The translations under genes were made by a program, and so were the position numbers. Below are positions 7,470 through 62,766 of a stretch of 64,000 nucleotides of DNA, piece by piece. How positions within the stretch are numbered: position 1 is the stretch's first letter; each line of letters begins with the position of its first letter. A model generated the notes under the pieces. The model saw only the letters and a program-made list of their open reading frames with translations, did no database searches and was not told the origin of the DNA. Source of the stretch: Candidatus Latescibacterota bacterium (GTDB taxonomy: Bacteria > Latescibacterota > UBA2968 > UBA8231); assembly GCA_965248265.1 (NCBI GenBank), contig CBDFJF010000002.1, forward strand, positions 3,616,001 to 3,680,000, in the 5' to 3' direction.

Positions 7470-9703
7470 TTAGGGCGATTCTCCAGGGCGCTCTGGAGGG
7501 TTGTCGGCCGATGGCGTTACACGCATCAACTTGGCCAGATTCGCTTGGGCCCTGTCGTCAGCGGGATCCAGCCGCAGAGCCTGCCGGGTCACGCGCAGAG
7601 CCGATTCGAAGTCTCCTTTGGCGGCGAAGGCCGACGCGAGATTGTTGTAAATCCGGATGCTTCCCGCTTCAAGCAAGAGGGCTTTTTCGTATGAAGTGAT
7701 TGCCTTCACGATGCGTCCGGCATTTCGGTATGCCGTTGCCAGGTTTTCATGCGCGTCCGCGTCGGTCGAATCACGCTGCACCACCTCCTCATATGCCACT
7801 GCAGCCTCGCTCCAGTTAAGAGACCTTAACTCACTCTCTGCCAATGCTTTCCATATAGTAACCTGCTGCGGAAAATCGCTCAAAACCCGGCGATAAGCAG
7901 CGGTTGTTCCCACACCTTCATCGACCAACTCGTGAAGTTTGAGATTGACCGCCGCTTCGGTGTAGGTTGGATCGATCTCGACGGCTCTCTGCAGAGCCAG
8001 GCGAGCTTCCTCTCGTCGACCGAGTTCGCCCAATAGCAGTCCCAGATTGTTGAATGACGGAGCGTAGCCGGAATCCAAGCTGGCGGCTAGCCGATAAGAC
8101 TTCTCGGCTGCCGACAGACGCTCCTGTTGTTGATAGGCCCTGCCAAGATTGACCCATGCCTCAAGGTTGTGGGAATCCAGTCGTACAGCGCTCTCCAATA
8201 GTGCTACCGCTTGACTATTGCGTCCCAGCCGTGAGTAGAGTCTTCCCAGGTTGTTGTAGCTGCCGGACAACCCCGGGCTCAACCGACGCGCCTGCTCAAA
8301 GGCCTGTTCCGCCCGCTGCAGCAGGCCAAGATCCTCGTAAACCAATCCCACATTGCTCCATGACTTGCCGTAGCGAGGATTGATCTCGATAGATCGCTCG
8401 AAGGCCTCACGCGCGGCGGTCGACTCACCGCGCTCATACAGAGCGAGGCCGAGATTGCTCTGTACACGGAACATCCCCGGGGCTTTGGTGACAGCATCCG
8501 TCCACAAGGCGTGCTCGTCTACCCAGACCGCATTCCGTGCATGGGTATGCGCTGCACAAGTCAACAGCAGCACCACAGCAAGCGCGGCCGAGACGGGACT
8601 CGGGATCCTTGCAGATGAGCGGACCGCTGTACTCCTCCTCTTCCCTATCACTGCGCCGACGAGGATGAGCACACCCACGAAAGGCAGGTACAAGCGGTGC
8701 TCGTTGACGAGCACATTCAAGGGGAAGATGAAGGTCAGCAGCAGGCCGGCGAAGAACCAGAGTGTACCTATGGTCACCCATGGCAACGAGCCCGAGGACC
8801 TGGGCAACGAACCCGAGGACCTGATCGTCAGACCAAGCACGGTCACCACCAGCAAGGCGCTGGCCAGCACGGTCCCATCGGTGAGACTGGTGGCCTCCGT
8901 GAAGGCATGCTCGACGCTGAGACCGACTGGAACGGCAATCAGCTTCAAGTAAAAGACGATCGCTTTTGTCTGAGTAAACAGCTGTACGTCGAGTGGACGT
9001 ACATCCTGTCCAAGAGATCGCGGCAGGAAACCGTCGATCGTGATGACGACCAAGTAGACTACCGTCATCACGGCATATGGCAACACCACAAGCATCACCC
9101 GTTTCAGGTCCCTACCCCGGACAAGCTCAATCACAAAAACCAGGGGCAGGAGAACGACGGCCGCTGATTTGCACAGCAGTGCGAGTGTGTACAGGATACA
9201 GGCGGTTCCCCGCGCGCTCTTGAATCGATGGAAGTAGAGGGCACCCAACACTCCCAGTACGTACAAGAGCTCCGAACGGCTGCTGATATAGTTGACCAGC
9301 TGGGAATTAATAGGGTGAAGGGCAAACGTGGCCCCGACAACCAAGGCTTGAAAGCTGGACAAACCCAGCTCCGGGCAAAGGCAAACACGATGACGGCACA
9401 CATCGCATGGACGAGCAGATTGACCAGACGATAGCCGATGACCTCGTAACCGCCCAGGGCATGATTGACCGCGTAGGTGGCTTGAAGCAGCGGACGGTAC
9501 ATGGCCATGGAGGCTTCGTTTGAAAAAGTGCTGGAATCGAGGAAGAACGAGGGAACTGTAGCCAGCTCTCGGATGTGGTGGTTATCGACGATGGAATGTG
9601 AATCGTCGTAGTGGAACGAATTGGAGAGAGAGCCAGCGTAGCAGATGAAGGTGACGACTACCAGAGCGGCTGCTCCCGTCCAGAACGAGTCGAATCTCCT
9701 CAT
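7470..9703 (-). CDS. TMTC-like GT-C/TPR protein, copy 9 (frameshift near 9371, probably a sequencing error)
   Basis: ORF 9131-9727 carries FHYDDSHSIVDN..MYRPLL; ORF 7470-9401 carries HPINSQLVNYISSRSE, SVEH, PLNVLVNEHRLY and many TPRs; adding one G (CGGAG to CGGGAG) fuses them into ~744 aa. Confidence 0.82.
8782..8823. repeat. 21-nt tandem duplication (2 copies, 1 mismatch)
   Basis: GGCAACGAGCCCGAGGACCTG / GGCAACGAACCCGAGGACCTG encodes RSSGSLP twice. Confidence 0.85.
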
Positions 9704-9716
9704 CGATCGGACCCTG

Positions 9717-11618
9717 TCATGGTGCATTCAACCGCTCGAGCTGTTCCTCGACCCGCGACAAGGCCGTACGCGCGGGTTGGTACCTCGGCGCTGACCGGAC
9801 GGCTCGCTGGAGATAGCTGTGTGCCTTCGTCAGATGCTGCCTGGCATCATCCTCGCCTTTCTCAGAAGCAGCCATCTGTGCATGCAGGACGGCCAGGTTC
9901 TTGAGAGTCTTGGCGTCGTCGCCCTTGAGAGCAACTGCCTGCTCGTAGGCTTGGCGTGCTCTCTCCATATCACCAAGGTCCTGAAAGGCGACGCCGAGAT
10001 TTCCGTACGCCTGATAGTGATAGGGCCTCAGTGATACTGCTCGTTCCAGAGAGCTGATACTACGGCGCAAGAGCAGCATCCGCTCTCCCCCTCTCCGAGC
10101 TCGGCTCTGCTCAAGATAGATGACACCCAAATTGACACGCGCGTCGACGTAGTCAGGATTGAGATCCGTGGCCTGGCGGAACATGGCCTCTGCATCCGCA
10201 AGTTTTCCGCGCGTCAACAGAATGCTGCCGAGGTTGTTGAGGGCTCTCAACGACAAAGCACGATCACTTTGAATCTCGATGACCCGCTCGTACGCCCCGG
10301 CAGCTTCACGCCAATGCTGCCTCGCGGTCAGCTCATCGGTTGCTTGCAGGGCGGCATCCTTATGCGCGTTACCCAGGTACAGGTGTCCGCGTGGCATCAA
10401 CGGCGCCTTGTCCACGACATCCCCCCACAGACTGAAATCATCTGCCCACGCACGATTGCGCTGGACGCAGATCGCTGACAGAAAGAGTATTCCTAGAATG
10501 GGAACCAGTCTCCGGTGCCGCATACAATACCTGGACAGTAAGGTCCCCAGTAGTAGACAGAACAGAGCCGTCGGCAGGTACAGCCGTCGCTCGTTCACCA
10601 AAACGTTCAGGGGCATCGCCATCACCGGCAGCATGATCAGAGCGGACCAACCGAGGCCCACCAGAGCGATCTTGAAGGTGCCCCGGTGGCGGATGAGCCA
10701 CAGCAACCACAAGCCACTCAGGATCAATACCAGGGATACTATGATGAGTGGACTCAGCTGCTTCTGAACGAAGAACTGGTGCTCGACATTGAGGCGAACG
10801 GGGAAGACCGTCAGGTAGAGGTAGTAGCCGATCGCCTTCGTCTGGGTCAGTAGCTGTGCTGAAAAGTCACGCACGGGTGCTCCCAGAGAACGGGTCAGAT
10901 AGTCGTTGTGGGTTACCACTGCGAAGTGAATGATCATCAGTATCCAGAAGGGCACCTGGCGTCGAAAGAGTTGCGAGGCGGCTCGAAGTCCATGCCCGGG
11001 GACACGCTGCGTTAAACAAATCCAATCGTGTAACAGCAAAACCAGCGGTGCGGTCACCAGCGTCATCTTGGTCAGCAGACCGAGCTCGAACGTGATCCAG
11101 GCACCGTAAGGATGCCGCTCGACGTCACGCCTGCTGGCACGGATGTACAGGGCGAGCGTCAACAAATAGAGCGCGGCTGCCAGACTCTCGCTCCGACTGC
11201 TTATGTAGTTTACCGGCTCGGTCGCCAGCGGGTGCGTGACGAAGAGCAGGCCAGCGATAAGAGCGGCGTCCCGACGCCGGGGGTACAGCAGCATCGTCAA
11301 CCAGGCCACAACGCAAGCATTCACGGCGTGGATGAGGATGTTGATCAGCCGATACCCCAGGACATCGTAATCCCCCAACGAATGATTCAGCGCATAGGAG
11401 ACCAGCAGCAGCGGCCGGAACATGCCTCTGTCGACGTCGGCTGAAAAGGTCCCGAGGTCGGTGAAGAACAAGGGCACATTTGCCAGGCTTCGAACGCTGG
11501 GGTTTTCCACGATGGAATGGATGTCGTCATAGTGAAATCCATTGCCGAGCGCATTCCAATAGATGGCCAGGCAGACCGTCACGACCGCGACATACAGGAG
11601 CAGATAGTCTCTCTTCAT
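9717..11618 (-). CDS. TMTC-like GT-C/TPR protein, copy 8
   Basis: FHYDDIHSIVEN, MFRPLL, HPLATEPVNYISSRSE, NVEHQF, PLNVLVNERRLY, C-terminal TPRs; ATG at 11618 overlaps the upstream stop (ATGA). Confidence 0.88.
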   Translation of the reverse strand: MKRDYLLLYVAVVTVCLAIYWNALGNGFHYDDIHSIVENPSVRSLANVPLFFTDLGTFSADVDRGMFRPLLLVSYALNHSLGDYDVLGYRLINILIHAVNACVVAWLTMLLYPRRRDAALIAGLLFVTHPLATEPVNYISSRSESLAAALYLLTLALYIRASRRDVERHPYGAWITFELGLLTKMTLVTAPLVLLLHDWICLTQRVPGHGLRAASQLFRRQVPFWILMIIHFAVVTHNDYLTRSLGAPVRDFSAQLLTQTKAIGYYLYLTVFPVRLNVEHQFFVQKQLSPLIIVSLVLILSGLWLLWLIRHRGTFKIALVGLGWSALIMLPVMAMPLNVLVNERRLYLPTALFCLLLGTLLSRYCMRHRRLVPILGILFLSAICVQRNRAWADDFSLWGDVVDKAPLMPRGHLYLGNAHKDAALQATDELTARQHWREAAGAYERVIEIQSDRALSLRALNNLGSILLTRGKLADAEAMFRQATDLNPDYVDARVNLGVIYLEQSRARRGGERMLLLRRSISSLERAVSLRPYHYQAYGNLGVAFQDLGDMERARQAYEQAVALKGDDAKTLKNLAVLHAQMAASEKGEDDARQHLTKAHSYLQRAVRSAPRYQPARTALSRVEEQLERLNAP

Positions 11619-13665
11619 GAGCCTGATCTGGCCTGCAGCCGGCGGTAGCGGGAGATGGCGGCGGTACGGATATCCTCGTCGCTGCAATTGGTAATCAACC
11701 GCCGGTAAACCTGGGCAGCGGCCTCGAGATCCTTCGCCGTTTCCAACGCGTTGGCCAGTTGGAGGGCCCCGCTCCAATGGTTGGGATGGACTCGGACCAA
11801 TTCCTTGTTGACGGCCAAACTCTGCGCGTAGGCACCGGTCTCCCACAAGGTCGTGGTCAGACCCCAGAGAGCCTCAGGGCTGCGAGGGTCCACCATCAAT
11901 AACTGACGGCAAAGCTCGATGACCAACCCGTGCCGACCGTTTGCCTTCATCGAGCGGGTCATTGATGGCAGCTTGCCGTGGAGGCGAGTCAGATTGGCGC
12001 GTGCATCGGCGTTGGTGGGCTTTTGATCCAGGGCAGCCCGGTAGTAGAACGCAGCGCTGTCCGGCCTGCCGGATTCCTCGAATAAGGTCCCGAGGTTGTT
12101 GAGCGCCAGATCGAAATGTAGCTCGTCGAATCCACCAGTAGATAGTGGGTACGCGCTGAGTGCAGGTCACCGGCGTCCTGAAAGGTCCGCGCGGCATTGT
12201 AGCGCACGTCCGACCAGGCCGGGTTGGTCTCAAGCACATTCTGGTATATGGCCAGGGCCGTCTTCCACTGGCCCAGGTCACGGTGTGCACTCGCCAGGTT
12301 GTTGCTGGCTACGACATTGTCCGGATCCAATGCCAGCGCATCTTCGAAATGCACGATCGCCTGCCGGGGCCTGTCCTGTGCCCTGGCATAGTTCCCCAGG
12401 TAGACGTGAGGCTCTATCGCGGACGGGGATTGTCTCTTCGCGTTCGACCAGAGACTTCCCTCGTCGCTCCATACCGTGTTCTGCCGCACAACCAGCACCA
12501 TGAACAGCAGCCCGAGTACCGGTCCCGCCCAGAGTATCCCTCTGAGCGATTCAAACCGGCTCATTCCGAGTACCGCCAGCAACGCTCCAACCAGCGCGAG
12601 ATAGAGACGATGTTCGTTGACGAGCACGTTGAGCGGGACCACGAAGGTCGGCATCAGAACCACCCCGATCCAGGCCAGCCCGAAGCCGAGGAGCGCATGT
12701 TCGCTGCGGGTGTCGGCGCTGGTCCGCCTTCCTGCATACCACGCTATCACCACGAGCGTTCCGACACCGGCCAGAGCCAGCAGTACCGTTATATCCGCCA
12801 GGGATGACACGGTGAACGCGTGGTGAACGGACAGACGCGCCGGCATCACGACAAGCTTCAGATAGTACGGGAGGGCCTTGAGTTGGGTGCCGAGTTGTTC
12901 ACTCATCGAGCGCACCGGTTCCTCGACCAGGGCCGTGTTGACGAGTGACCGGATGTAGAGGAGGTAGGCGGTGGCCACGACGGCGTACGGCACGTACACC
13001 GACATTTGAGCGCGCAGCCGGCGACCGTCCAGGCGGTCAGTCAGCACGATCAGCAAAGGCAACACGATGCTGATTTCCTTTGAGCCCAGCGCCGCCGCGA
13101 AACAACCTACCGAGGCGATACGCGTCAGCAGCAGACGCCCGTCCGGTACCGATCTGTCCGGCTTTGAGCGCAGGTACAACCACAAGCTGACCATCATCAA
13201 GAAGCCAGCCATCAACTCGGAGCGGCTACTGATATAATTGACCGGCTCAGTGGCCAGTGGATGAACGGCGAACAGCATCCCTCCAAGCAGGGCCAGGCAA
13301 ACACTCACGCGCAGTTCGATGAACAGGAGCCAGACGGTAATACTCGCCAGTGCGTGCAGCAGAATGTTGATCAGATGATAGGACCAGGTCTCATACCCAC
13401 TCCAGGAGTGGTTCAGAGCGAAGGTGGCCAGTAGCAGAGGCCGGTACATCGCCTTCTCCTCATCCCTGGAGAAGTATTCGGGATGGGAGAAGAATTCGGG
13501 AATGCTCTCCAGGCTGCGAATGTGATCGTTCGTGACGATGGAGTGGCGATCGTCATACTGAAAGGCGTTGCCGATAGCGTTCGCATACATCACGGCGCAC
13601 ATCACCAACAAGAGCGCTATGGAAGCCAAGCGACTGCTGACGATGGTGGTGATCAGGGCTCTCAT
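11615..13665 (-). CDS. TMTC-like GT-C/TPR protein, copy 7 (frameshift near 12121, probably a sequencing error)
   Basis: FQYDDRHSIVTN, MYRPLL, HPLATEPVNYISSRSE; the TPR continues in another frame (HFDLALNNLGTLFEESGRPDSAAFYY..) into ORF 11615-11962. Confidence 0.82.
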
Positions 13666-15575
13666 CGCAATCGCCTCGAGAGAAATTGCAGACGCGCTGT
13701 CGCCTTCGCGTCATCCGGTGCGAGTCGGAGCGCGCGCTCGAAGGCGGCGCGTGCCTCCTGCCAGGCTTGAACACATCCGCTCGTATCTCCATTCGCCAGC
13801 CTGGCGCCGCCGACGGCGATCAGTACCTCCCCCAGGTTGCGTGGGTACAGGGCATCGTTCGGCGACAACTCGAGGGCGGCGCGATAGGATTCGGCGGCCT
13901 TCGAGAACTGCTTGGCGCCCGTATAGGCGTTGCCCAATTCGTTGAACACGTCATCCCCGGGTTGCAGCTCGGCCGCGCGTTCAAAGGCCTGCGCGGCGGC
14001 GGAGAAATCGGCTTTGTCGTACAGCAGCAAGCCCATATTGTAGTAGCCATCGGCGAAGTGCGGATGCAGGCGAAGCAATTGCTGGTAGGCTGTGATTGCC
14101 GATTCCCTGCGCCCGAGCTGTGAAAGCACCGTCGCCCTGCCGCTGAGTGCTTCCCTGTAGCTTGAATCAGAACCTAGGACGGTGTCGAACTCAACCATCG
14201 CCCTCTTCAGCACCGAGGAGTGAGTGGGGTCCTGCTGGTGTAAACTCAGGGCGTGCTCGAGGTACAGATTGGCCAGATTGGTGCGGGCAGCACGATGCGT
14301 CGACTCCAGCTTCAGCGCCCGATGAAAGGAGCGCTCGGCCCCGGCACGGTTTCCGGAAACCGCCTGGGCATTGCCCAGATGCACGTGGGGCCGCGCCATC
14401 AACGGGCTCTTGGCGACGGAGTCCTCCCACAGGGTCAATTCGCTTTCCCATACTGTATTGCGTGTTATGGTATGAGCCCCGAGGAGGACCACAAGGACGG
14501 GCCACAGGGCACTGTACCGCCCCTTGCCGATCCAGTGAGGCCACATCTTACCCACCAGCACTGCCAGTCCCGCAAGAGGCAGGTACAGCCGGTGCTCGTT
14601 TATTAGGACGTTCAGTGGCACAACCGTAGCCGGCAGCAATGCGATTAGCGCCCAGAAGAGCCAGAGGCGGGAATCCCCCTTCACGCGCAACCAGGCCAGC
14701 ACGACCACTGTACCTAACATCAGGGCACTGACGATGACGGTGCCGTCCAGTATGGACACCGACTCGGAAAACTGATGCTCAACATTGAGACCGACCGGCA
14801 CCAGCAACAGTTTGGTGTACAGGGTCAGCGCCTTGAGCTGAGTCCAACACTGCTCAGGCAACCCGCGTGGGGATTGGCTCACTGAAGTCGGCAGGAAACG
14901 GTTCCAGATCTGCAATGCAACGTACCCGGCTGACAGCAACCACAGCCAGATCGTGTTTGTCCTGCCTACGGGGTGCGGACCCTCGCGCCATACCCCCTGC
15001 ACCCATACCATGAATGGCAAGGTGATTACCATCTCTTTCGAAAGCAGTCCCAGTACGAAACAGATGGCAGCAGCGATCGAGGCCCGCGAACCGGCCGTGG
15101 CGAGCAAGCGGAAACTGGCCAGGTAGAAGCAGGCACCCAGCAACTCGGATCTGCTGCTGATATAGTTGACAGGCTCCGTCGCCACTGGATGCAGGGCGAA
15201 AAGGCAGGCCGCCCATTGCGCCCCCCTTGTAGTGCAACCGTTCTGGCGGGAGATACTCCACACCAGCAGTGAACACACAAAATGGATGATGGTATTGAGG
15301 ATGTGGTACCCGCTCACTCCATACTCGCCCAGGGCGTAGTTGACGGCGTAGCTCAACAACAGGACCGGTCGGTACATGGCCTTGTCGACGTCGCTGGAGA
15401 ACAGGGCCGGATCCGCGAAGAAGCTGGGAATGTTCGTCAGGCTGCGGATATGAGGGTTGGCGACGAGCGAATGAAAATCATCGTAATGGAAATTGCCGTT
15501 GAGGCTGTTCCCGTATGTGATCGCCACCACGACCCCGAGGAAGAGCGGGAAACGCCAACCGTGCAGCGCGCTCAC
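13662..15575 (-). CDS. TMTC-like GT-C/TPR protein, copy 6
   Basis: FHYDDFHSLVAN, MYRPVL, HPVATEPVNYISSRSE, NVEHQF, PLNVLINEHRLY, TPRs. Confidence 0.88.
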   Translation of the reverse strand: MSALHGWRFPLFLGVVVAITYGNSLNGNFHYDDFHSLVANPHIRSLTNIPSFFADPALFSSDVDKAMYRPVLLLSYAVNYALGEYGVSGYHILNTIIHFVCSLLVWSISRQNGCTTRGAQWAACLFALHPVATEPVNYISSRSELLGACFYLASFRLLATAGSRASIAAAICFVLGLLSKEMVITLPFMVWVQGVWREGPHPVGRTNTIWLWLLSAGYVALQIWNRFLPTSVSQSPRGLPEQCWTQLKALTLYTKLLLVPVGLNVEHQFSESVSILDGTVIVSALMLGTVVVLAWLRVKGDSRLWLFWALIALLPATVVPLNVLINEHRLYLPLAGLAVLVGKMWPHWIGKGRYSALWPVLVVLLGAHTITRNTVWESELTLWEDSVAKSPLMARPHVHLGNAQAVSGNRAGAERSFHRALKLESTHRAARTNLANLYLEHALSLHQQDPTHSSVLKRAMVEFDTVLGSDSSYREALSGRATVLSQLGRRESAITAYQQLLRLHPHFADGYYNMGLLLYDKADFSAAAQAFERAAELQPGDDVFNELGNAYTGAKQFSKAAESYRAALELSPNDALYPRNLGEVLIAVGGARLANGDTSGCVQAWQEARAAFERALRLAPDDAKATARLQFLSRRLR

Positions 15576-30171: not shown

Positions 30172-30172
30172 T

Positions 30173-40870: not shown

Positions 40871-40886
40871 CGCCGACGCAGCCTCC

Positions 40887-43051: not shown

Positions 43052-43104
43052 GTATTCGATCCTTGTTTCTGTGGTGTGGAGATAAATACTCCGCTCTCTT
43101 CTCC

Positions 43105-44130: not shown

Positions 44131-44158
44131 GAACGATCTCCCGAGTTCATATGTCGCT

Positions 44159-48777: not shown

Positions 48778-48947
48778 TATATAGATCCTGCCAGACACCG
48801 GAATCTCGAACAGGCGCTGGCACTACTTTGTATTAGGGAGTAACTCGTCGAGACCCTGTAACGGTGGGCTATAGGCTCATCGGGAGGGGAAATCGGTGGG
48901 AGGAATGTTTCCTAATGTACTGATTATCCAACGCATTAGGCAAGTTT

Positions 48948-50883: not shown

Positions 50884-50890
50884 GGCAAGA

Positions 50891-51619
50891 TTACAATCCG
50901 CTCGAAACGGTCTCCTGCAAGTTGATCGAGGCGACACTCAAGCTGTCCAACAACTGCCCCGGGTTCGAAAACTTGTAGTTCCTGTTGACCAGGCGCAGTT
51001 GAGCAGCCGAGTTGTTCGGGTCCGGTCGATCGACGGCACTGTAGCGCCCCAGATGAAAGTAGGCCTCCGACAACATCAACCTGACATGCCTGTCGTCGAG
51101 GTTGTCATGGCCGAGTTGGCGGCCTTGAGAATCAAGACGTGTGGCCGAGTCGTAGTCAGGCTCCGCCTCCAAGGCGTCGATGGAGTACTGCACCACATCA
51201 CCGAAATCGCCCTGTGCCAGCGAAACACCTGCCCGTCCGACCCAGGCATCGGCGTTGCGACGATCCAGGGTGGTCGCGATGTCGAATGCAAGCTCTGCAG
51301 CATCGAGATTCTGCATGGTCATGAACGACCAGCCAATTCCGTTCTGGGCCTCTGACTTCACCTCATTCTTGACGGCATCGACACCCTCAAGACCGTCGGC
51401 CTCATCAAGTGTGGCCGTGAAAAAGTCGATGGCCCCTTCCAGGTCGCCATCGTTGTACTGGGTCCAGTCGATGGGCAATCGATCCTTCAGCCGCTCCTCA
51501 CGCTTCTGTATTTCTCCGGGCCCGATCCCACTACCACCACCACAGGAGAGCAGAAACGCGCCTGCCAGGCACGCTACTCCCGATCGGATCACTGTCTTTT
51601 TTAGAATCTTCTTCTGCAT
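50891..51619 (-). CDS. TPR-containing lipoprotein
   Basis: Lipobox FLLSC after a basic N-terminus; TPR-like AQNGIGWSF, NADAWVGRAGV, LSEAYFHLGRY. Confidence 0.75.
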   Translation of the reverse strand: MQKKILKKTVIRSGVACLAGAFLLSCGGGSGIGPGEIQKREERLKDRLPIDWTQYNDGDLEGAIDFFTATLDEADGLEGVDAVKNEVKSEAQNGIGWSFMTMQNLDAAELAFDIATTLDRRNADAWVGRAGVSLAQGDFGDVVQYSIDALEAEPDYDSATRLDSQGRQLGHDNLDDRHVRLMLSEAYFHLGRYSAVDRPDPNNSAAQLRLVNRNYKFSNPGQLLDSLSVASINLQETVSSGL

Positions 51620-54600: not shown

Positions 54601-56075
54601 CTGAAAACGAGGCTGTCCAGCGGTGTGTCTACATCCCTGACGATCTCGTCGAAGCGGAAATTCCTGGTGCTGCCCCGGCTGATACGCGGATTGCGCTCGC
54701 TTTCGGGCAGAATGAACTCGGGCGCATCGGCCACACCTTCGACCTCGACGATGACTCGCAGCGTATCTCGCCCACGGGCTTCATCCTGAACCAGCACCCG
54801 CAACGAGTCCACGCCGGAAAAATCCGGCAGCGCCCACACCAGCAACTGGTGCGTAAGCTGATCGTCATCCCCTCTGATTCGCGCGTTCGTAGCGTTGGTC
54901 CCAACCGGGAGCGAGACCGCGTACACAAGGCCGTCATCCGGGTCCGCCAAATCCGGATCATCGACCATCCTGTCGAGATCGACTCCCTTGAACGCTATTC
55001 GTGCATCGAGTGAAAAACCTTCGGCGATAAAGGTGTGCTCGTCTTCCCTGAAGCGCACAGTGTCTCGTTTGACCCCGTCCGGTCCTCTTTCCAACGGACG
55101 ACCCAGAAAATCTCGGACAAATACAGGCGGATTATTGACGATTATATCAGAGAACTCGAACGAAGAAGGCACCGGTCCGGGAAAACGAACTCCGGCAATC
55201 GAATCCTGTGCTGTCCATATGACTCGTGTCCGTCCCGACCAACCCAGAAGAGGACGCACCTTGACGATGTTGCCATTGGGATCGATTTCGATCTCGAGGC
55301 TGTCAGTGGAGACCGGCGGTGTCAGTGAAAAGCTCCACTTCAGAGAGTCGATCGGTGACAGAACATTCGAGACGTAGGTGTTGAGTGAACCGATCTGTAC
55401 CGAGTCGGCCTCGCCAGGAAGCAGGATTACGTCTGGTATGTCAAAGAGTTCGAGGCCAAGGATATTGATCTCCATCCCCTGCGGAGCCGATCGAAACTGC
55501 CGCTCGCCCCCATCTGCAAGGATGACGCGTGTTTCGCTGATGGGATTTGAGTGGATACGTATTTGTGAGTTTTCCGCCGGCCGAATGGCTCGGAGTTGAA
55601 ACGTAGCGACCACGCCCTGGCCCGAACGACTTCGCTGTGCACCCACGCCTGGCCCCAACACGACCCGGTAATCGAGCAACATCAGATCGTCAGTGACCCC
55701 AAGGGCGTCATCGGACGAAACGAGCAGGTTGCGCTGCTCACCAGCTCCTTCAAACAACGGCCCGGGCACGAACGGCTGGTGCCCGGCGTTCGCCTGTCTC
55801 GATGTGTCGGCACCAGCGGTTATGTCGACGGGCCTCTGATCGGTTACAATGAAATTGTCCCTGGGAACGGTGACGAAGACGGCGATGCCGGAGGCTTCGA
55901 TGTTGCCCAGATCAGCCAGAATCTCAATGGTAACCGACTGGCCTATCTGGAGCTGGACCTGATCCCTGTTGGTGCCAGCCTCTCGCAAGCGGATGCTGTT
56001 CTGAGCGGTCGCCTGACTGGCGCCAATGACGACGAAGCACAGAACGACAAGGCATAATGTTCCGGCTACTTTCAT
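51654..56075 (-). CDS. Large secreted surface protein: cohesin-like N-domain, tandem cadherin-like repeats, C-terminal FlgD-Ig/T9SS-like sorting domain
   Basis: Signal peptide (ATA-Q); repeats with IPD..LDD[FY]..D[PA]DN..EL.W..V.DP; linkers VNNPP and VADAP; C-terminal NNYPNPFNPET..IYN..WDGRD..ASGVYLY..KRMTLLK. Confidence 0.85.
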   Translation of the reverse strand: MKVAGTLCLVVLCFVVIGASQATAQNSIRLREAGTNRDQVQLQIGQSVTIEILADLGNIEASGIAVFVTVPRDNFIVTDQRPVDITAGADTSRQANAGHQPFVPGPLFEGAGEQRNLLVSSDDALGVTDDLMLLDYRVVLGPGVGAQRSRSGQGVVATFQLRAIRPAENSQIRIHSNPISETRVILADGGERQFRSAPQGMEINILGLELFDIPDVILLPGEADSVQIGSLNTYVSNVLSPIDSLKWSFSLTPPVSTDSLEIEIDPNGNIVKVRPLLGWSGRTRVIWTAQDSIAGVRFPGPVPSSFEFSDIIVNNPPVFVRDFLGRPLERGPDGVKRDTVRFREDEHTFIAEGFSLDARIAFKGVDLDRMVDDPDLADPDDGLVYAVSLPVGTNATNARIRGDDDQLTHQLLVWALPDFSGVDSLRVLVQDEARGRDTLRVIVEVEGVADAPEFILPESERNPRISRGSTRNFRFDEIVRDVDTPLDSLVFRWVDDPEGHFFADTTRSGDGSKLVQVTGDALFVGDGRVSFEVADPDSLKDTMIIFFEAAEALPPDVFPSDFPIRLSSGGGRDLQNLDDFVEDPDNADNELGWAVPPLHTTDISVNEARQLSVQSPPDFVGYESVDLTVSDPGNQTDKLTLRIYSSDGRPVVGGIPDIVLDRGDQNKDIDLDDYSHDADNTPQELTWQVLGDFDRDNLQVGVAPLSNLVTFFAPESAIFRTETVIFQVIDPGGRSWQDTVLVTVKSGGKGGEGLFEIKPAIGPLQAEVGLIPTEILDLDDHLTISPLISRSSITWNITRPGSVGFILLSGDTKVIAFSDSAGTDTVEFVATDSLGRTEKASTTVRYFGLSDILTLRSIPDISFIAGGAFSGLQLNDFIFDSEAHPDSVIEWSAKIVGDGQGLFIKVNDDNTVTAFSSDTLKTEVVFIATNTAIGVTGRDTINVIAQDPSLATLPLKEFTEIVIAAGDADSTITLNDFLPDGTEANTAIWSVSGQTITIPFIDPLPPHKLTLTALGNRIGSDTLSFSVELGGGFRALGDMVVRVVESPDEISFSVRVIPNATNVEFLNLFVMSRAELASIPSVVFSFGTTDTTVAVTQIETQLESRGILIWSGRAVIPPGQAGEVTVSAQAKTQLGTDVQASASVVIGTATAGKAIALRQGDVEVTVPAGAVERDTKVLLQRDSERVSDQQMVVSGAGGSNDGLHPELTMRAAVNLFPVQLDLKQAAALRLVSAKYDAADGLYRQESGKWVYVAGSTEVMSFSRFGRYAIMRDGRGPEIQIISAPTAQRSMLQAMLTDGGSGVDLETISVSLDGVRVGDVTIDGGLLEWTPTDPVGAGDHYLEITVQDRAANRTTHGIKVEGGGNTLPTMLELGNNYPNPFNPETTIPFIVPDWNLFESGEGSASGARIRLAIYNTAGQMVRLLLDDQEVRSGSHEVLWDGRDADGRKAASGVYLYRVEGGAGAGITKRMTLLK

Positions 56076-56132
56076 TTTTCCCCTAAAAAACTCCGCAAAA
56101 TACACATGATGGACCCCTTCACACGGTTAAAG

Positions 56133-56279: not shown

Positions 56280-56326
56280 AAAAAAAAGAGAGGCGCACCC
56301 GGGACAATCCCGAGTACGCCTCTTTT
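56280..56326 (-). terminator. Rho-independent terminator of the 2135-aa gene
   Basis: Minus strand AGAGGCGTACTCGGGA-TTG-TCCCGGGTGCGCCTCT followed by C and T8; the stem pairs fully with G-U only on this strand. Confidence 0.9.
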
Positions 56327-56358: not shown

Positions 56359-59300
56359 CTACTTGACCAGCATCATCTTGCGGATCTGCGAGAATTCACC
56401 GGCTTCCAGGTTGTAGAAGTAGACGCCGCTGGCGACGGCCCTACCCTGGGTGTCGGCACCATCCCACTTGAGGTTGTAGGTCCCCGCCTTCATCCTGTTG
56501 TCCACCAGCGTGCGAACGGTCTGTCCGAGCTGGTTGTAGATGCGCAGCTTGACGTCCCTTGCCGTGGGGATGTCGAACTTGATCTCCGTGGACGGATTGA
56601 AGGGGTTCGGGTAGTTCTGGTGCAGAGCCGCTATCGTGGGCAGTGCCGGTGCGCTGTCAACCTGCATCTGCACGCCTTGATAGTTGCTGTTCACCAGGTT
56701 ACCCGAGGCGATGTCGATGACACCGGGCTCATCGCCGAGCGTTACGAAATGCACGGTAACGAGATCAGCATCACCCCTCGCCGACCAACCCCGGCCGATA
56801 CGTGAACCAGTAACCTCGATCACGCCCGGCTGGACCCGCTGGAAGAAGAGCGAGCCGGCGGAGTTCTCGTCGAAGATGTCGCCCTGCTCCACGGCCTGAT
56901 CGGCTTCCAACGGCCTGACTAACTCAGGATCGTAGGTCATCGTCATACCGTAAGCAGTGACATCGTTCATACCCTCGACCGTCGCCGTCAGCTCGAAGAC
57001 CTTACCAGGCCACCAGGCTTCGACGTCTTCCATGCCCTCTACGCGGGCGATGGCACCGGCATTGTCTCCACCCACCACCGGCTTGAAGACCGGAGGTGCG
57101 CCGAACTTGTTGAAGTTCGTTGAGACGAACCCGATGTCGAGGGAGTTGATCACTCCGTCATTGTTGATGTCGGCGTCGCGGACGAAACCCGCATCAGCCG
57201 GTGTGAGGTTCCACACCGCGAAGATCTGGTTGGCGTCGGCGATGTCGACCTGATTGTCGCCTGTGGCGTCACCACCGAGCAGGAAGCCCAATGGGGTCGC
57301 CGGTGACAGGTCGCCGAGGGCGTCAGAGCCAAACGTCGGCTCGATAGCCTGCGTCAACCCGTTGAACAGGTTCAGCGTGTCGGTGCGACCCGTGACATAG
57401 CCAGGAGCCTTCACCGTCAACTCATAGATTCCTGGTGGAATCTGGATGAGCTGGAAGGTGCCGAAGCTGCTCGTGGGCACGTTGACGGAGTCCTCGAGGA
57501 CGCCGCCACCCAGATCCACTGGCGTACTGTCGTTGGATGCGATGTAGGCCTGGTCGGTGACGTCCTTGGTGCTACCGACCTCGCGCAAATGCACATCCAT
57601 CGTGTCAGCGTAATCCGAACGACCCTCCAACGGTACCGTCACCAGCAGGCGAGCCCGCGGTGTCAATATAACATTGGCGTCACGTGTCGGAGCTGCCAGT
57701 TGATTGATACCTCGATACAGCGCGGTGGTGCGCCCACTCTCCGTCGACCACTGCAACAGCGTGTCGAGCGGGGCGCCGCCGTCGAACTGCTTGACCAGCA
57801 GTCGTAGCGTCGCCGACACCTGAGAGCTGTCGAACGGCGTCGTCACGCGGCCGATAACCTCACCGGTCACGGAGAACTCGACGAAGTTCAGTTTCAGGAA
57901 CTGGGCATCACCCGTTGAGGTGTCGTTCTGGGCGATCGTGCTCGGCGCCTGGAAGGCCCCGACCGAGTCCACAAACGGCTGCACACCGGCTGTCACCGTG
58001 TCCTGATCGATCACCTCGAAGTACCTACGTGGCACGTCGAGATGAAGGGCGAACAGGTCAGTACTGCTACCCTGGGAGTTGATGAGGATGTCGAAGTCCA
58101 GGGTATCTCCGGAACTGGCAGTCAGCGCAGCCGGACCCATCTCAATGCTGTAGAGCGGATCCGTGCCGACCACGGACAGCGTTCCAGGTGCTTTCGACAG
58201 CACGGCTCTCTGTGCCTGCGAGCCGATACCGGTCGCGACCGAGTCGATCACTTCACTGATGTAGATATTCTCACCAAACCGTGGATTCGAACTGCCAGCG
58301 ATGAAAATATCGAACGTGGAGCCGCCCGCCAGCGCCGGGAACGAGGTCGTCTTCGTGTCCCAGTTGAAGAACTTGGGATCGCTCTCACGAATCGTCTGGA
58401 CGTGCGCGTTGGTCGTATCCGCACCAGTGATACTGTTGATGAGCAGCACGTCGGCATTACCGGTGCCGAGGCCGTTCATGTTACCTTCCAGCTGCGTCAG
58501 CGTGGAGTACTTGTTCGCTGGCGCGGCGTAGAGACGCAGGTAGGCATCGTCGGTGCCGGTGCCGTCATCGATCAGGAAAGCATCGTATTCCAGACGAATG
58601 ACATCACCGTTGATGAGGGTCTGTCCACCCGACGGCGGCGTCTTCATCGTCACCTTCGGTGCGCTGGAGGCGGGGCTCTCCTGTGTGCCGACCAGGAGCA
58701 CAGCGCCGCCCAACGATACACGGACGTTACCTGAGGAGCCGTCGTTGACGACCGCGTAGACCCACGCGGTATCAGTCGTGGCACCAACCTGGTAGGCGAA
58801 CGGGTTGGCCGAGTTGCCCGGCAAAGCAGCAACCGGAGCTGGGTTCTGCCGGAACACCTTCGGCAGGACACCCGGAGGATTGGCAAGATCCCAGACGAAC
58901 TGGTCTCCGCCCCCTTCGTCGTCCTCGGACAAACCGCTGATGATGAGCACGGCAGCACCCGAGTCAGTCCCCGTCGTAGCTACCAGGTCGGTCGAGTCCG
59001 TGCCAGAGAAGTCCTTGACGGCCGGATCGAGACCTGTGTAGTAGAGGGAGATCGTGGCGTTGTCATCGATGTCGACATCGGATCGACCACGCTGCCACTG
59101 GAACGTGTACTGCGTCTGCCCCTGCGTTGTGTTGATCTTGCGAGTTTCACCCGCGAGTGGTGCCGTGAATTCGAAGGCCGGCGAGTGGCGGATTGCGAGC
59201 GTCTGGGTAGACTTGCCCACTATCGTGCTGTCGCCGTCGGTCACCACAGCGTAGATGAAATAATTGCCCTGGGCAATCACCGAATCACCGGCGGCGCCCT

Positions 59301-62300
59301 GCGCGGTGACATCGAAGTCGAACTCGAAGTCGTCGTCCGTGCGCAGAGAGTCGGACAGCTGGACCGGTGTAGCACCAGCCAGTTCCAACGTCGCGTTCGG
59401 GAATATGCCGGCAGATATCGACGCATTGCTGTCGACCAAAGCGCTGGAGGTCGAAACAAAGAGCCGCACCTGGGCGTTGTCGTTGAAGTCGACGATCGTG
59501 AACAAGACCTTGAACGGATTCGTCTTCGACAGATCATCGAACTCACCGGTGTCGACGGTGTCGGTACCGGTCGGCGTGATCTGCTTGACCAGCGGAATAT
59601 GCCGGATGGTCAAGGGACCTTCACTGACGTCGAACACCGGGGGGTTGGCCCCGTCGTCGGCGACAGCGTAGATGAAGAAGGTTCCGTCCAGGATCTTGGT
59701 GATCGACTGGAAACCGTAGGCCGTCTGCAAGGTCAGGCCCGGGTTGTCCCAGGAGTAATCCTGGATATTGGTGTTGGATGTGCTTTCGGTCAGATCACCA
59801 CTACCGTCGGCGGCCAGTGATCCACTGGTAAAACCGGCGGTAAAGGCGTCGTTCTCATCGACGATGAGATTGCCGAAGGTGCGGATGTCGAGGACGCTCG
59901 TCAGACCGTTGTCCGGATAAGCGTACAGCTCCATCTGCAGTGAGTCGGCTCCCGTCGGACCTGTGGTAGCACCGACGTCGTCGTCATCGTCAAAGATCAC
60001 GTAACGGATCGTGAACGACTCATTGGCGAAACCGCTTGTGCTCGCACTCGGCGCCACAACTCGGACCACCGGTGCCACGTTGGCAGCGACGATGGCGATG
60101 TTGGCACCCATCTGGAAATAACTGCCAACCGGTGCCTCGCGTTCATCGCCTTGAGCCGCGTTCACGCCGACGTCGGCGACACCCGGGCGGGCGGCATCCA
60201 CACGGACCCCCTTGACGTAGGTGCCTGCGTGAGAACCTGCCGCGACGGCTCCGGGCCTTAGACTAATGCTCTGCGACACGCTCTGTTGCCCCGTGCCGCT
60301 AGGTCGCGCAGCCGAGCTCTGACTGATCACGAACAGGTTGTCAGCGGAGTCGGATGCCAGCACGTTGAGCTTGACCAGCAAGCCCACCTTGTCGGTATCG
60401 TCACCCCACTCGCCAAGGCCGACAGAGCCATCCTCGTCGTTCTGGCCCTGCCACACACCGTTGTCGTTCGTCGCCTCGACATCGTTGGCGATGCCTTTAG
60501 CGACGAAGGTGAGCGGAAAGTTTGCCGGGTCCAGGCTAGCAACGCCCATCGATGAGAACTGGATACTACGCCACTGCCCGGTCAGGAACCCACCCGGCGC
60601 ACTTGACGTCGACGGCGTTGTCGCACCGATACCAGCCCCGTTGGCGTTGTCGCCGACGGTGATGTGGACCAGGTTTCTGGACGACGTGGCCTGCGGGTTC
60701 ACAGGATTATAAACCAGGTTGTAGGCGAACCCGCCGACTGGCGTGGACTTGTCCTCATCCGTGATCACACGGCCGAGGATCTTGAAGTACGGAAGCGGAG
60801 CGATATTAGAATTGCTCAGCGCTGCCGAACCGCGTCCAGCCTGGTCCTGTCCCTGTGCAACTGCCAGGGGTCCCGTAGCGAGACCGGCGGCTATCGGCGA
60901 CCCACCCACGAAGGTCAGGTAAACGTTCGAATCCCCGGAAATCATGGCGATGTCGGGCTCGAACAGTTCCGGGTGCTTCTCGAGCACGCCGTCGTCATGG
61001 ATTGCCCCGTTGTTGGCAGCCGAGGCCACCACCTGAGGCAACTCCCACTCCTGCCCGTTGAAGCGGCTGTACAAGATTTTGACAGCCTGGCCGGTACCCC
61101 CAGTTACATCTCTCGAAACAGCGTCATTGCTGCCGGCGCCGGAGAAGACGATGTGCAGATCTCCCTGGTCGGCGCGGCGGTCGTCGACGACGGCTCCGAT
61201 GCGGTCAGAGAAAGCCCAGTGGTTCTCTATCTGGTAGCCACGCATGTTCTGGAACAGCGGGGCCGGATTACCCGTGGTGTATGTTGCAGCGGCGGCCACG
61301 TTGGTCGGGAACGCCTGGGTGGGCGTGCCGTCGAACGAGCCAGGACCGATGCCACCGTCGTAGCTGTAGAAATCGTAGTTGATGTTCTCGTCGTTGCCGT
61401 CAGTACCGGCGGCGGCGTCCGTGTGTTTCCACAGCACGTAGATCCGGTCCGGACTGCGCTGCCTGTCGACGACGACGGTGGAAAAGATATGTACTGCGCT
61501 ATTGCCCACAGCTTGCGCTGCAAAGGTGCGGTCACTCGATAGTCCGCCACCAGCAGTATTGGCTGCAATTATAGCAGCCGTGGGCCCCAAGCCGAGGTTG
61601 GCGGGCTCGTCATCGAGTGACCCGACGACATCTCCGCCCACACCTTGGTTCCAACCCGCCGCGGACACGTCATCCCACACGCTGGCTGGAACGGTCTTGT
61701 GCACGATAGACTCTACACCGGCTCCGTTTTCGTCATACCAGGAAACGTGAAGAACATCGTCATCCCCCACGGCGATGTCCGGAGCCCGACCACTGGATCC
61801 GTCTAGATCGACGCGCACGCCACCGCGACTGGCCGTATTGCCGGTCGAACCGATCTGCACGGCTTGCGCGCTGCCACCCGTGAGGCTGTCAGCGTCCATC
61901 TTGGCCACGATGACATCCTCAAAATTGGCCGTAGCGTTATTGAGCTGCCGCTCGTAGACGATGAAACAGTCGTCCGTCAAGGTGATGGCCATACGCGGGA
62001 ACGCATTGCTGCGCCCCTGGACAGTGGCCGTGTCGTTGACGACAACCGCATCGTTCGCCGGCAACCAGGAACTGCCGCCGTCATTGGAGTAGTTGAAGTA
62101 GATATTGTCGTACCCCTTACGGTCATTACCGGTACCAGTGGTAGTCTGGTTTTCGGTTATGCCTCCGGTCACGCCATCCGGAGAATGGTCCATCGCGTAC
62201 ACCACACGCGGATTTCCTCTGCCGTCAACGACGATATCGACGGTCGAGAAACCAGAGTCCATCGTCATGCTGGAGGTGATCAGATCAAAGCGCAGAGTTC

Positions 62301-62766
62301 CAGATACGGAGACCGTATCCAGAAAACTCTCGCCGCCATTCACGCTCTTGGCGTACACGACGCCATAAACCGGTGTAGCGAAAGCGCCATTGTCGGTGTT
62401 GATGGTTCCGCGCTGCTGGACCCAGGCCCGGTGAATGAAACCGAACTGGTCAATGCTAATGGCCTGGGACATGTAGGCAGCGTTCCCGGCCTGCGCGGCG
62501 GGAAAGAACGGAACACTCTTTTCGAGCTTCTGGAAATTCCCGATGACGGGAAAATCCGCATTGGCCGCCTCGTTCAAGTCGACTCGCACCGTCACGTCCT
62601 TGTCCGTTACGAACGTGCTGGTGGTCGAACTGTCAGCGGCATTGAATCCAACAGGCGTCTGGTTCTCAAACACCGGCTGGGCATCGGCATCACCGCCGAA
62701 CCCGAAGCCAGCTATCAGAACCGCGACAGCCGTTCGGAAAATTTCACGCCTAAGACTCATAATCAA
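56359..62766 (-). CDS. Giant secreted surface protein: BNR/Asp-box region, four Ig-like repeats, cohesin-like, dockerin, cohesin-like, FlgD-Ig/T9SS-like C-terminal domain
   Basis: Signal peptide (ADA-Q), Asp-boxes SVNGGESF and SNDGGSSW, dockerin pair GDATGDNQVDIAD / DINNDGVINSLD, QNYPNPFNPST..WDG..ASGVYFY..RKMMLVK; GGAAGGAG RBS. Confidence 0.88.
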   Translation of the reverse strand: MIMSLRREIFRTAVAVLIAGFGFGGDADAQPVFENQTPVGFNAADSSTTSTFVTDKDVTVRVDLNEAANADFPVIGNFQKLEKSVPFFPAAQAGNAAYMSQAISIDQFGFIHRAWVQQRGTINTDNGAFATPVYGVVYAKSVNGGESFLDTVSVSGTLRFDLITSSMTMDSGFSTVDIVVDGRGNPRVVYAMDHSPDGVTGGITENQTTTGTGNDRKGYDNIYFNYSNDGGSSWLPANDAVVVNDTATVQGRSNAFPRMAITLTDDCFIVYERQLNNATANFEDVIVAKMDADSLTGGSAQAVQIGSTGNTASRGGVRVDLDGSSGRAPDIAVGDDDVLHVSWYDENGAGVESIVHKTVPASVWDDVSAAGWNQGVGGDVVGSLDDEPANLGLGPTAAIIAANTAGGGLSSDRTFAAQAVGNSAVHIFSTVVVDRQRSPDRIYVLWKHTDAAAGTDGNDENINYDFYSYDGGIGPGSFDGTPTQAFPTNVAAAATYTTGNPAPLFQNMRGYQIENHWAFSDRIGAVVDDRRADQGDLHIVFSGAGSNDAVSRDVTGGTGQAVKILYSRFNGQEWELPQVVASAANNGAIHDDGVLEKHPELFEPDIAMISGDSNVYLTFVGGSPIAAGLATGPLAVAQGQDQAGRGSAALSNSNIAPLPYFKILGRVITDEDKSTPVGGFAYNLVYNPVNPQATSSRNLVHITVGDNANGAGIGATTPSTSSAPGGFLTGQWRSIQFSSMGVASLDPANFPLTFVAKGIANDVEATNDNGVWQGQNDEDGSVGLGEWGDDTDKVGLLVKLNVLASDSADNLFVISQSSAARPSGTGQQSVSQSISLRPGAVAAGSHAGTYVKGVRVDAARPGVADVGVNAAQGDEREAPVGSYFQMGANIAIVAANVAPVVRVVAPSASTSGFANESFTIRYVIFDDDDDVGATTGPTGADSLQMELYAYPDNGLTSVLDIRTFGNLIVDENDAFTAGFTSGSLAADGSGDLTESTSNTNIQDYSWDNPGLTLQTAYGFQSITKILDGTFFIYAVADDGANPPVFDVSEGPLTIRHIPLVKQITPTGTDTVDTGEFDDLSKTNPFKVLFTIVDFNDNAQVRLFVSTSSALVDSNASISAGIFPNATLELAGATPVQLSDSLRTDDDFEFDFDVTAQGAAGDSVIAQGNYFIYAVVTDGDSTIVGKSTQTLAIRHSPAFEFTAPLAGETRKINTTQGQTQYTFQWQRGRSDVDIDDNATISLYYTGLDPAVKDFSGTDSTDLVATTGTDSGAAVLIISGLSEDDEGGGDQFVWDLANPPGVLPKVFRQNPAPVAALPGNSANPFAYQVGATTDTAWVYAVVNDGSSGNVRVSLGGAVLLVGTQESPASSAPKVTMKTPPSGGQTLINGDVIRLEYDAFLIDDGTGTDDAYLRLYAAPANKYSTLTQLEGNMNGLGTGNADVLLINSITGADTTNAHVQTIRESDPKFFNWDTKTTSFPALAGGSTFDIFIAGSSNPRFGENIYISEVIDSVATGIGSQAQRAVLSKAPGTLSVVGTDPLYSIEMGPAALTASSGDTLDFDILINSQGSSTDLFALHLDVPRRYFEVIDQDTVTAGVQPFVDSVGAFQAPSTIAQNDTSTGDAQFLKLNFVEFSVTGEVIGRVTTPFDSSQVSATLRLLVKQFDGGAPLDTLLQWSTESGRTTALYRGINQLAAPTRDANVILTPRARLLVTVPLEGRSDYADTMDVHLREVGSTKDVTDQAYIASNDSTPVDLGGGVLEDSVNVPTSSFGTFQLIQIPPGIYELTVKAPGYVTGRTDTLNLFNGLTQAIEPTFGSDALGDLSPATPLGFLLGGDATGDNQVDIADANQIFAVWNLTPADAGFVRDADINNDGVINSLDIGFVSTNFNKFGAPPVFKPVVGGDNAGAIARVEGMEDVEAWWPGKVFELTATVEGMNDVTAYGMTMTYDPELVRPLEADQAVEQGDIFDENSAGSLFFQRVQPGVIEVTGSRIGRGWSARGDADLVTVHFVTLGDEPGVIDIASGNLVNSNYQGVQMQVDSAPALPTIAALHQNYPNPFNPSTEIKFDIPTARDVKLRIYNQLGQTVRTLVDNRMKAGTYNLKWDGADTQGRAVASGVYFYNLEAGEFSQIRKMMLVK

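Follow-up and report, generated by a model that had tools for sequence, protein, structure and literature searches.

TMTC-like glycosyltransferase genes in an ordered array and their linkage to a giant secreted protein in a Latescibacterota genome

Described glycosylation systems and the locus

The animal enzymes TMTC1-4 combine a multi-pass membrane domain of the glycosyltransferase C (GT-C) type with tetratricopeptide repeats (TPRs) on the non-cytoplasmic side; they are important in human development, and their recognition of acceptors is poorly understood. Two papers support the view that TMTCs serve cadherins (PMC7001481, PMC11292533), and a passage of a third states that full-length homologues occur in many uncharacterised prokaryotes (PMC7801869). 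In full-text searches we found no paper characterising prokaryotic TMTC homologues, and no account of a conserved multi-paralogue TMTC-like array or of its link to a type IX secretion system (T9SS) protein. Here we describe an array of this kind in a 64,000-nt stretch from a Candidatus Latescibacterota bacterium (assembly GCA_965248265.1, contig CBDFJF010000002.1, positions 3,616,001 to 3,680,000; hereafter the window), which also holds sugar-related genes and the genes of two giant secreted proteins, giant2135 (2135 aa) and giant1483 (1483 aa). Our tentative reading, which we hold at a little less than an even chance, is that a bacterium of the Latescibacterota/Gemmatimonadota type has a conserved supercluster for envelope glycosylation, of which the window displays the greater part, with the giants as likely acceptors.

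The array genes resemble animal TMTC1-4 in the succession of a multi-pass GT-C domain and TPRs on the non-cytoplasmic side, in the DD, YRP, Rx(D/E), K(E)..T and E.R.Y motifs of matching loops, and in the occurrence of several paralogues per genome. They differ in that 9-13 paralogues stand in a fixed chromosomal order, whereas animals have four dispersed genes, in that they lack a Pfam TMTC_DUF1736 match and carry VEHQF instead of DW, and in that the candidate acceptors are not cadherins. As in the synthase/GT-C pairs DPM1/PMT, ArnC/ArnT and GtrB/GtrC, family 2 glycosyltransferases (GT2s) with C-terminal helices and GT-Cs occur in one single-strand cluster. Unlike those pairs, the window lacks a flippase gene of the GtrA or ArnE/F type, and its GT2s lie 14-20 kb from the array, with no homologue of either within 10 kb of TMTC-like genes in the 59 related loci described below.

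A further parallel is the glycosylation of T9SS cargo in Bacteroidota, where Tannerella TfsA/TfsB are an S-layer glycoprotein pair exported as T9SS cargo, and where block transfer or C-terminal amide linkage is used and TMTC-like enzymes are not known to be involved. The window likewise encodes, side by side, two proteins of very large size that each have a C-terminal domain of the T9SS type, but it belongs to another phylum and holds no PorU, VimA or Wbp aminotransferase gene. Its AsnB/TIGR03108-like, carbohydrate esterase family 4 (CE4) and GFO/IDH/MocA genes recall the Wbp/Vim system of Porphyromonas, for which passages of one paper place WbpS in TIGR03108, VimE in CE4 and WbpB in the pathway of the sugar that links T9SS cargo to lipopolysaccharide (PMC7468200). 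Two passages of the Kuenenia S-layer paper (PMC5088730) contain nothing on TPR or GT-C enzymes.

The TMTC-like array and its conservation

The window was scanned with Pfam and NCBIfam over 38 open reading frames (ORFs), and between 62766 and 559 all ORFs taken as genes lie on the minus strand. An earlier interpretation made from the sequence alone (the sequence-only reading) had claimed a shared strand from 62766 to 7470, which is borne out and extends to 559; the module order that it gave, with giants, a lipoprotein cassette, GT2 and tailoring genes and then GT-C genes, likewise agrees with the Pfam and NCBIfam assignments. In order of transcription we find the giant2135 and giant1483 genes, a TPR lipoprotein-like gene, a 525-aa gene, an HNH ORF, a sugar-related block of ~20 kb, the TMTC-like array of ~21 kb, and lepA with the genes beyond it. 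The count of 11 GT-C genes also stands, but only nine are TMTC-like with TPRs and two belong to a distinct PMT_2-type family; moreover, the GT-C genes do not all follow the tailoring genes, as one PMT_2-type gene (36964-38925) lies among the latter and a family 4 glycosyltransferase (GT4) gene (23372-24559) lies inside the array.

The nine TMTC-like GT-C/TPR genes, all on the minus strand, are A (26387-28201), B (24556-26412), C (21459-23375), D (17753-19723), E (15578-17760), F (13662-15575), G (11621-13665), H (9717-11594) and I (7470-9727). Their pairwise identity is 29-32%, and C-terminal TPR families of Pfam were matched in all nine. The two PMT_2-type GT-Cs, of which the one inside the array (19720-21462) has no TPRs, share 17% identity with the nine; since hhalign found no relation between the array profile and the PMT_2-type paralogue (probability 0.1), the two were treated as a separate family.

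An alignment of 36 family members, including 27 homologues from other genomes, contains 39 invariant columns, among them D32-D33 (FHYDD), M67/R69/P70 (MYRP), R142-S143, K180, H267/F269 and E327/R329/Y331. The aspartate pair occurs in 36/36 aligned sequences and in 8/8 window paralogues, E144 (of RSE) is present in at least 90% of the 36 rows, and K180 is followed by E in some members only. The motifs given for TMTCs in the relevant passage of PMC7801869 are M1 DD, M2 SHKSYRP, M3 RxD, M4 KE(T/Q)xxT and M7 ERxxY; the array motifs DD, YRP, RxE, K and ExRxY sit in loops matching M1-M4 and M7, with the spacing of E327-x-R329-x-Y331 differing from that of M7 by one residue. A full-length model of an array protein (predicted local distance difference test, pLDDT, 89.2; predicted TM-score, pTM, 0.82) has ~11 membrane helices, and by the helix list read from it the motifs fall in loops 1, 1, 2, 3, 4 and 5 of an 11-helix topology. 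The TPR domain is predicted by the same model to lie on the same non-cytoplasmic side as the motif loops.

A PDB sequence search with the full-length protein returned TPR proteins only, and a profile of the array N-terminal domains gave no match at E<=10 in a 2026 copy of the PDB. The fold search with the full-length model was dominated by TPR structures (OGT, SPY and consensus-TPR being best for that region), so the first 400 aa were modelled alone. Although confidence in this N-terminal model is low (pLDDT 61.6), each of its 25 top fold matches in the PDB is a GT-C enzyme or a complex that includes one: AglB, STT3, AftD, Pmt4, ArnT, PglB, Pmt1-Pmt2, DPY19 and AftB, with TM-scores (query) of about 0.4-0.57, translocon entries being taken as whole complexes. 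Language-model neighbours in a protein atlas were bacterial PMT_2 clusters and one eukaryotic cluster (score 0.94) in which 25% of members carry TMTC_DUF1736, and one data source labels several homologues 'protein O-mannosyl-transferase'. The family is large, with 983 proteins at E<=0.001 among 8000 candidates scored. The GT-C membrane domain, the motifs in the M1-M4 and M7 loops and the C-terminal TPRs thus uphold the claim of a TMTC array in the sequence-only reading, and the nine genes largely qualify as TMTC-like GT-C/TPR transferases without the DUF1736/DW feature.

Conservation of the array was examined by scanning species-representative genomes with the N-terminal profile. This yielded 319 relatives, and the best 80 of the 319 led to 59 loci in 34 assemblies, in which ORFs were called by a crude in-house procedure and searched with the window proteins; as identity to these loci reached 49% at best, the genome of the window itself is not among them. 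A GT-C domain was found in 223 of the 608 ORFs. Long TMTC-like arrays end at lepA in 17 loci from 17 assemblies and are collinear with A to I when each gene is assigned to the position of its best window paralogue. Two loci (L007 and L012) read B-AsnB-C-D-E-F-G-H-I-lepA, a Gemmatimonas metagenome-assembled genome has C to I followed by lepA, and in L048 and L045 a PMT_2-type GT-C, AsnB, PGA_cap and a methyltransferase lie upstream of A and B, as in the window. An embedded AsnB or GT4 gene holds a fixed place in the arrays. Beyond lepA come the signal-peptidase gene (lepB), hemW (11 loci) and Wza/Wzz genes (5 loci).

A FastTree phylogeny of 125 N-terminal domains with Shimodaira-Hasegawa-like support, from which window gene I was excluded because its frame break truncates it, groups genes by array position in clades that contain both Gemmatimonadota and Latescibacterota. 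Clade purity and support are 15/15 at 100 for m1, 15/16 at 99 for m2, 13/14 at 99 for m3 and 11/13 at 100 for m6. Thirteen positional labels cost 24 changes on the tree against a mean of 91.3 for shuffled labels, with 0/200 shuffles as low. At least 13 positional groups recur (m1-m9, B1-B3 and C), of which 11 form starred or nearly pure clades on the tree, whereas m7 is a loose group and m9 consists of window gene A alone. As the position clades span both phyla, the array paralogues are ancient and their order has been retained.

Frame breaks were seen in gene E near 16036-16039, in G near 12120 and in I at 9335-9386. Past each break good similarity goes on in a new frame to the next gene, and the sites are not long homopolymers; the breaks represent indels introduced by the assembly or else pseudogenes of very recent origin.

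Giant secreted proteins and TMTC-like genes beside them

The giant2135 gene (56359-62766, minus strand; likely true start the ATG at 62760) encodes a signal-like N-terminus, ~1700 aa without a known family, and CarboxypepD_reg, Dockerin_1 and T9SS type A domains, the last scoring 35.4 bits in TIGR04183 (cut-off 23) and 27.8 bits in Pfam Por_Secre_tail (cut-off 27). Next to it, giant1483 (51654-56105, minus strand) has Big_9 Ig-like repeats (27.3 bits) and a C-terminal FlgD_ig domain (34.6 bits); its Por_Secre_tail score of 21.2 bits is below the cut-off of 27, so that FlgD_ig alone passes. Both proteins are acidic (isoelectric points of 4.24 for giant2135 and 4.45 for giant1483) and poor in cysteine (1 and 2 residues), with a Ser+Thr content of 16.0% and 14.5%, respectively, compared to 11.1% in other window proteins. 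No T9SS component genes were found in the window.

The sequence-only reading had described the giants as cadherin-like, a description that our searches do not support: neither matched a cadherin Pfam family at E<=5, and PDB sequence searches gave no cadherin-related match, with none at all for giant1483 and only dockerin/X-module and FlgD entries for giant2135. Both tests are sequence tests. The protein atlas gave no usable match for residues 1-1750 of giant2135.

The giant2135 family comprises 76 homologue clusters at E<=1e-10, with labelled sources in Latescibacterota, Gemmatimonadota and Handelsmanbacteria. Identity is 78-93% for four near relatives and mostly 48-61%, over ~2100 residues, for the other full-length members; seven more distant ones form a group at 35-36%. 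Such conservation is high for a surface protein. The dockerin region of giant2135 lies at about residues 1760-2050 and a cohesin Pfam domain occurs in some orthologues; together these hint at a cohesin-dockerin-type assembly at the cell surface. In two Latescibacterota loci (L019, 15750-21197; L042, 15720-21143) the giant2135 homologue is broken into two ORFs, which could stem from frame errors or real breaks, and this disruption resembles that of the window array.

In 10 loci from 10 assemblies (labelled 5 Latescibacterota, 4 Gemmatimonadota and 1 Handelsmanbacteria), a giant2135 homologue is directly preceded by two or three further TMTC-like genes, from which ~1 kb of non-coding DNA separates it. 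In 9 of the 10 the homologue matches over the whole length present in the locus, and L034 ends within its first ~100 aa. These giant-adjacent genes form clades B1-B3, each monophyletic with support of 95-99. Seven further loci have B1-B3-type genes, and six of them end before a giant could appear. In L033 a giant1483 homologue follows the giant2135 homologue. The giant stands upstream of the lepA array in the same orientation in 3/3 contigs that contain both (CBDAOB010000005.1, OZ244235.1 and CAMAVQ010000001.1); the starts of the giant gene and of lepA are 56.7, 73.2 and 81.2 kb apart there and 55.4 kb apart in the window. TMTC-like genes and giant2135 are thus linked across phylum-level lineages, and the lack of linkage in related genomes, which the sequence-only reading had named as grounds for its refutation, is not observed: TMTC-like genes adjoin giant2135 orthologues in 10 assemblies, and the order is the same wherever both modules share a contig (3/3).

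TMTC-like genes were also seen in other company. The order JAB-TMTC-ThiS-TMTC-PALP, in which TMTC-like genes are oddly interleaved with a mec/cysO/cysM-like sulfur-carrier set, is kept across phyla (e.g. L047 6182-14510; also L044, L019, L022, L014 and others). In a third setting (7 loci), a methyltransferase, a MurJ/Polysacc_synt_3-type flippase and one TMTC-like gene of ~850 aa occur together, beside hom, apgM and asd (L041 7762-12550; also L039, L046, L051, L052, L036 and L053). Among the 59 loci this is the only place with a flippase beside a TMTC-like gene.

A proposed pathway and its alternatives

Two GT2 genes, both on the minus strand, are candidates for the synthesis of lipid-linked donor sugars. 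The first (47175-48146), whose listed ORF extends to 48446 with the GT2 domain beginning at residue 126, is of the polyprenyl-phosphate sugar synthase type, with best PDB matches to ArnC (4e-22), archaeal dolichol-phosphate mannose synthase (DPMS, 1.5e-16) and GtrB (7e-14). The second (42107-43240) is of the DPMS/AglJ/PpgS type and has a sole PDB match, to DPMS 5mlz (3.9e-10). These matches, along with the two C-terminal hydrophobic helices in each protein, agree with the identification of two DPM1-like GT2s in the sequence-only reading. All NCBIfam scores are far below cut-off (for the first GT2, AglJ 100.5/325, ArnC 100.2/529 and PgfS 89.6/500 bits), and the sugars therefore cannot be named.

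Around and beyond the GT2 genes, on the same strand, lie a GT4 (46005-47174), a methyltransferase (45226-46080), a Trm112-methyltransferase (44159-45271), a GFO/IDH/MocA oxidoreductase (43105-44256; NCBIfam UDP-GlcNAc 3-dehydrogenase, 160 bits with a cut-off of 450), a second GT4 (40887-42104), two AsnB/TIGR03108-like genes (38987-40969 and 34996-36927; 594 and 615 bits against a TIGR03108 cut-off of 816.9) on either side of the PMT_2-type GT-C already mentioned, a CE4 deacetylase (34025-34999), a Peptidase_M55 (33198-34028), a divergent AsnB-like gene (31312-33201), a PGA_cap gene (30173-31336), a methyltransferase (29449-30198) and a short GT4-like gene (28244-29188). The sequence-only reading had called this a complete system. 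Completeness is not shown, since the window lacks a lipid-sugar flippase, a priming transferase and a polymerase (Pfam and NCBIfam); the families Bac_transf, Glycos_transf_4, Polysacc_synt and Wzy are absent from the 38 window ORFs, and Wza/Wzz-like genes are present.

We hypothesize that the two membrane-anchored GT2s would charge polyprenyl phosphate with sugars on the cytoplasmic side, while the oxidoreductase, AsnB-type amidotransferases, CE4 deacetylase, methyltransferases and GT4s would make or modify those sugars. A flippase encoded outside the window would carry the lipid-linked sugars across the membrane, where the nine TMTC-like and two PMT_2-type GT-Cs may consume them on the periplasmic face, with the periplasm-facing TPR domains selecting the acceptor. 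The likeliest acceptors would be Ser/Thr residues of exported proteins in transit, with giant2135 and giant1483 as prime candidates, and the glycosylated giants might then leave by a type IX system via their C-terminal domains. The nature of the donor sugars, proteins and not glycans as acceptors, and the giants as those proteins are things that we infer; giant2135 is a good but unproven candidate target. A more specific form of this proposal, that ~13 anciently diverged TMTC-like paralogues place O-glycans on giant2135 and its partner in a pattern specific to sites or domains, each TPR domain reading a different part of the acceptor, seems to us doubtful. If it were true, domain-specific protein O-mannosylation would have a bacterial prototype, shared by Gemmatimonadota and Latescibacterota, whose main target is expressed from a gene with a conserved structured leader of its own.

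Several observations weigh against a supercluster that glycosylates the giants. With regard to the enzymes, Pfam TMTC_DUF1736 (PF08409) matches 0/8 array members at E<=10, VEHQF with its invariant H267 and F269 replaces the TMTC DW motif (M5) in the corresponding loop, the GT-C fold matches have weak E-values (3.8e-3 to 0.09) from a model of pLDDT 61.6, and comparison with orthologues shows one frame break each in three of the nine array genes (E, G and I). With regard to donors, no GtrA-, ArnE/F- or Wzx-type flippase occurs among the window ORFs by Pfam or NCBIfam, and in none of the 59 loci does a homologue of either GT2 come within 10 kb of a TMTC-like gene. As for the acceptors, we infer the glycosylation of the giants from their sequence and setting, and Ser and Thr are among the least conserved residues of giant2135 (mean identity 0.48/0.46 in 46 orthologues); there is no excess Ser/Thr conservation in these orthologues, with 33% of positions staying S/T in at least 90% of rows, and this comparison gives no signal. 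The linkage has its own weak points. The B1-B3 genes are not orthologues of the window array genes and do not appear in the window, which has rpsT upstream of giant2135; one locus (L035) has a GDSL-lipase-like ORF at the giant's expected place, followed by the contig end; and a strong terminator sets the giant2135 gene apart. In those genomes, moreover, the TMTC-like genes alternate with Prok-JAB, ThiS and PALP genes, and lepA, lepB and hemW border the array. Because TMTC-like genes thus sit among housekeeping genes, their adjacency to the giant may reflect a conserved genome backbone and not a shared function.

This last point leads to an alternative that we consider unlikely but worth serious attention, namely that the array serves general, housekeeping protein O-glycosylation in which each paralogue has its own acceptor class and the giants are neighbours only through the conserved backbone. 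The placement of TMTC-like genes among mec/cysO/cysM-like genes, beside lepA/lepB/hemW and beside hom/apgM/asd speaks for it, as do the recurrence of at least 13 positional groups, the size of the family (983 of 8000 candidates) and the position of the array next to a signal peptidase gene in relatives. Against it, the giant lies beside TMTC-like genes in all 10 loci where the stretch is readable, and the macro-order is held over 57-81 kb in two phyla, which is unusual for unrelated genes. That same linkage in 10 assemblies, with the order kept in 3/3 shared contigs, makes it highly improbable that the modules are functionally unrelated and merely share a strand, even with a terminator after the giant2135 gene, an HNH ORF and a gap of ~560 nt between modules, and housekeeping genes downstream.

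A different possibility, which we regard as improbable though not negligible, is that the acceptor is a glycan or glycolipid, either a polysaccharide exported by Wza/Wzz or the glycolipid anchor to whose sugar T9SS cargo is attached by its C-terminus, which the GT-Cs would extend or decorate in the periplasm. The window contains AsnB/TIGR03108-like (594 and 615 bits), CE4 deacetylase and GFO/IDH/MocA dehydrogenase genes, the same enzyme classes as in the Wbp/Vim linking-sugar pathway outlined in passages of PMC7468200. Wza and Wzz genes follow the array in the window and in 5 loci, the arrays contain an AsnB or GT4 gene at a constant position, and the lipid- or glycan-acting enzymes ArnT, AftD and AftB are among the fold matches. 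Yet no priming phosphoglycosyltransferase, Wzx, Wzy, WbpA, WbpE, WbpD or VimA-type gene occurs in the window, and the NCBIfam scores for TIGR03108, CE4 and GFO/IDH/MocA all fall below cut-off. To our knowledge, too, the fusion of a GT-C domain to a long TPR domain is known only from protein-modifying TMTCs, which counts against a glycan or glycolipid acceptor. If the acceptor were nonetheless a polysaccharide, TPR-fused GT-Cs would gain a new role.

Glycosylation of exported proteins by the TMTC-like array, if correct, would point to an important aspect of the envelope that is still unstudied in two environmental phyla of wide distribution. A conserved bacterial system with ordered paralogues, candidate donor synthases and a candidate acceptor would also provide a tractable model for target choice by GT-C/TPR enzymes, open to genetics in cultured Gemmatimonas.

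Regulatory elements and neighbouring genes

The cluster from the giants to the array is more than one operon, as indicated by a terminator after the giant2135 gene and by the HNH ORF and ~560-nt gap that part the surface-protein genes from the glycan genes. The terminator is an intrinsic-terminator-like hairpin at 56289-56323 (minus strand; 16-pair stem with 10 G-C pairs and a T8 tail) and the sole strong site of its type across 7-64 kb. When 7-47 kb were scanned for terminators and promoters, no signal exceeded the expectation from shuffling, and no terminator was found after the giant homologue in L033, the one locus examined. The HNH nuclease-domain ORF (48133-48798, minus strand; 221 aa, Pfam HNH 27.3 bits) lies exactly between the surface-protein and glycan modules and overlaps the upstream extension of the first GT2 ORF.

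Ahead of the giant2135 gene, a promoter-like box, GAAGTTC-N12-GCCGATA (63134-63110, minus strand), and a structured leader of ~300 nt (62767-63134 including the box, minus strand) are kept in the window and 9 loci under three phylum labels (L047 15297-15627, L044 13717-14048, L038 14342-14675 and six more). RNAalifold assigns the leader 29 pairs, 10 with compensatory changes, and its elements include a CCCGUGGGGGCGGG hairpin, a stem around GAUAGGGAAAU, and UUCCGCUUUCAG. No Rfam family matched the leader at gathering score, and it may be an undescribed cis-regulatory RNA.

Between the giants and the HNH ORF, on the minus strand, lie a 242-aa TPR protein (50891-51619; Pfam TPR_16) with a lipoprotein-like N-terminus (…LLSCGG) and a 525-aa protein with a signal-like segment (49360-50937) that has no Pfam or NCBIfam match. 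The first half of the latter shows an alternating beta-strand-like pattern; the second, judged by eye only, is similar to small periplasmic lipoprotein domains. Downstream of the array, again on the minus strand, Pfam and NCBIfam identify lepA (5522-7396), hemW (4364-5500) and thrB (3439-4398), followed by a Wza-like exporter (1739-3397) and a Wzz-like chain-length protein (559-1728), both above the Pfam cut-offs and below those of NCBIfam. The window also contains a tRNA-Tyr gene (34-118), and its first plus-strand gene is rpsT (63695-63970). Within the sugar-related block, the PGA_cap, divergent AsnB-like and Peptidase_M55 (D-aminopeptidase-like) genes stand together at 30173-34028, and PGA_cap and an AsnB-like gene recur beside the array in L048; this grouping suggests an amino-acid-bearing sugar or polymer.

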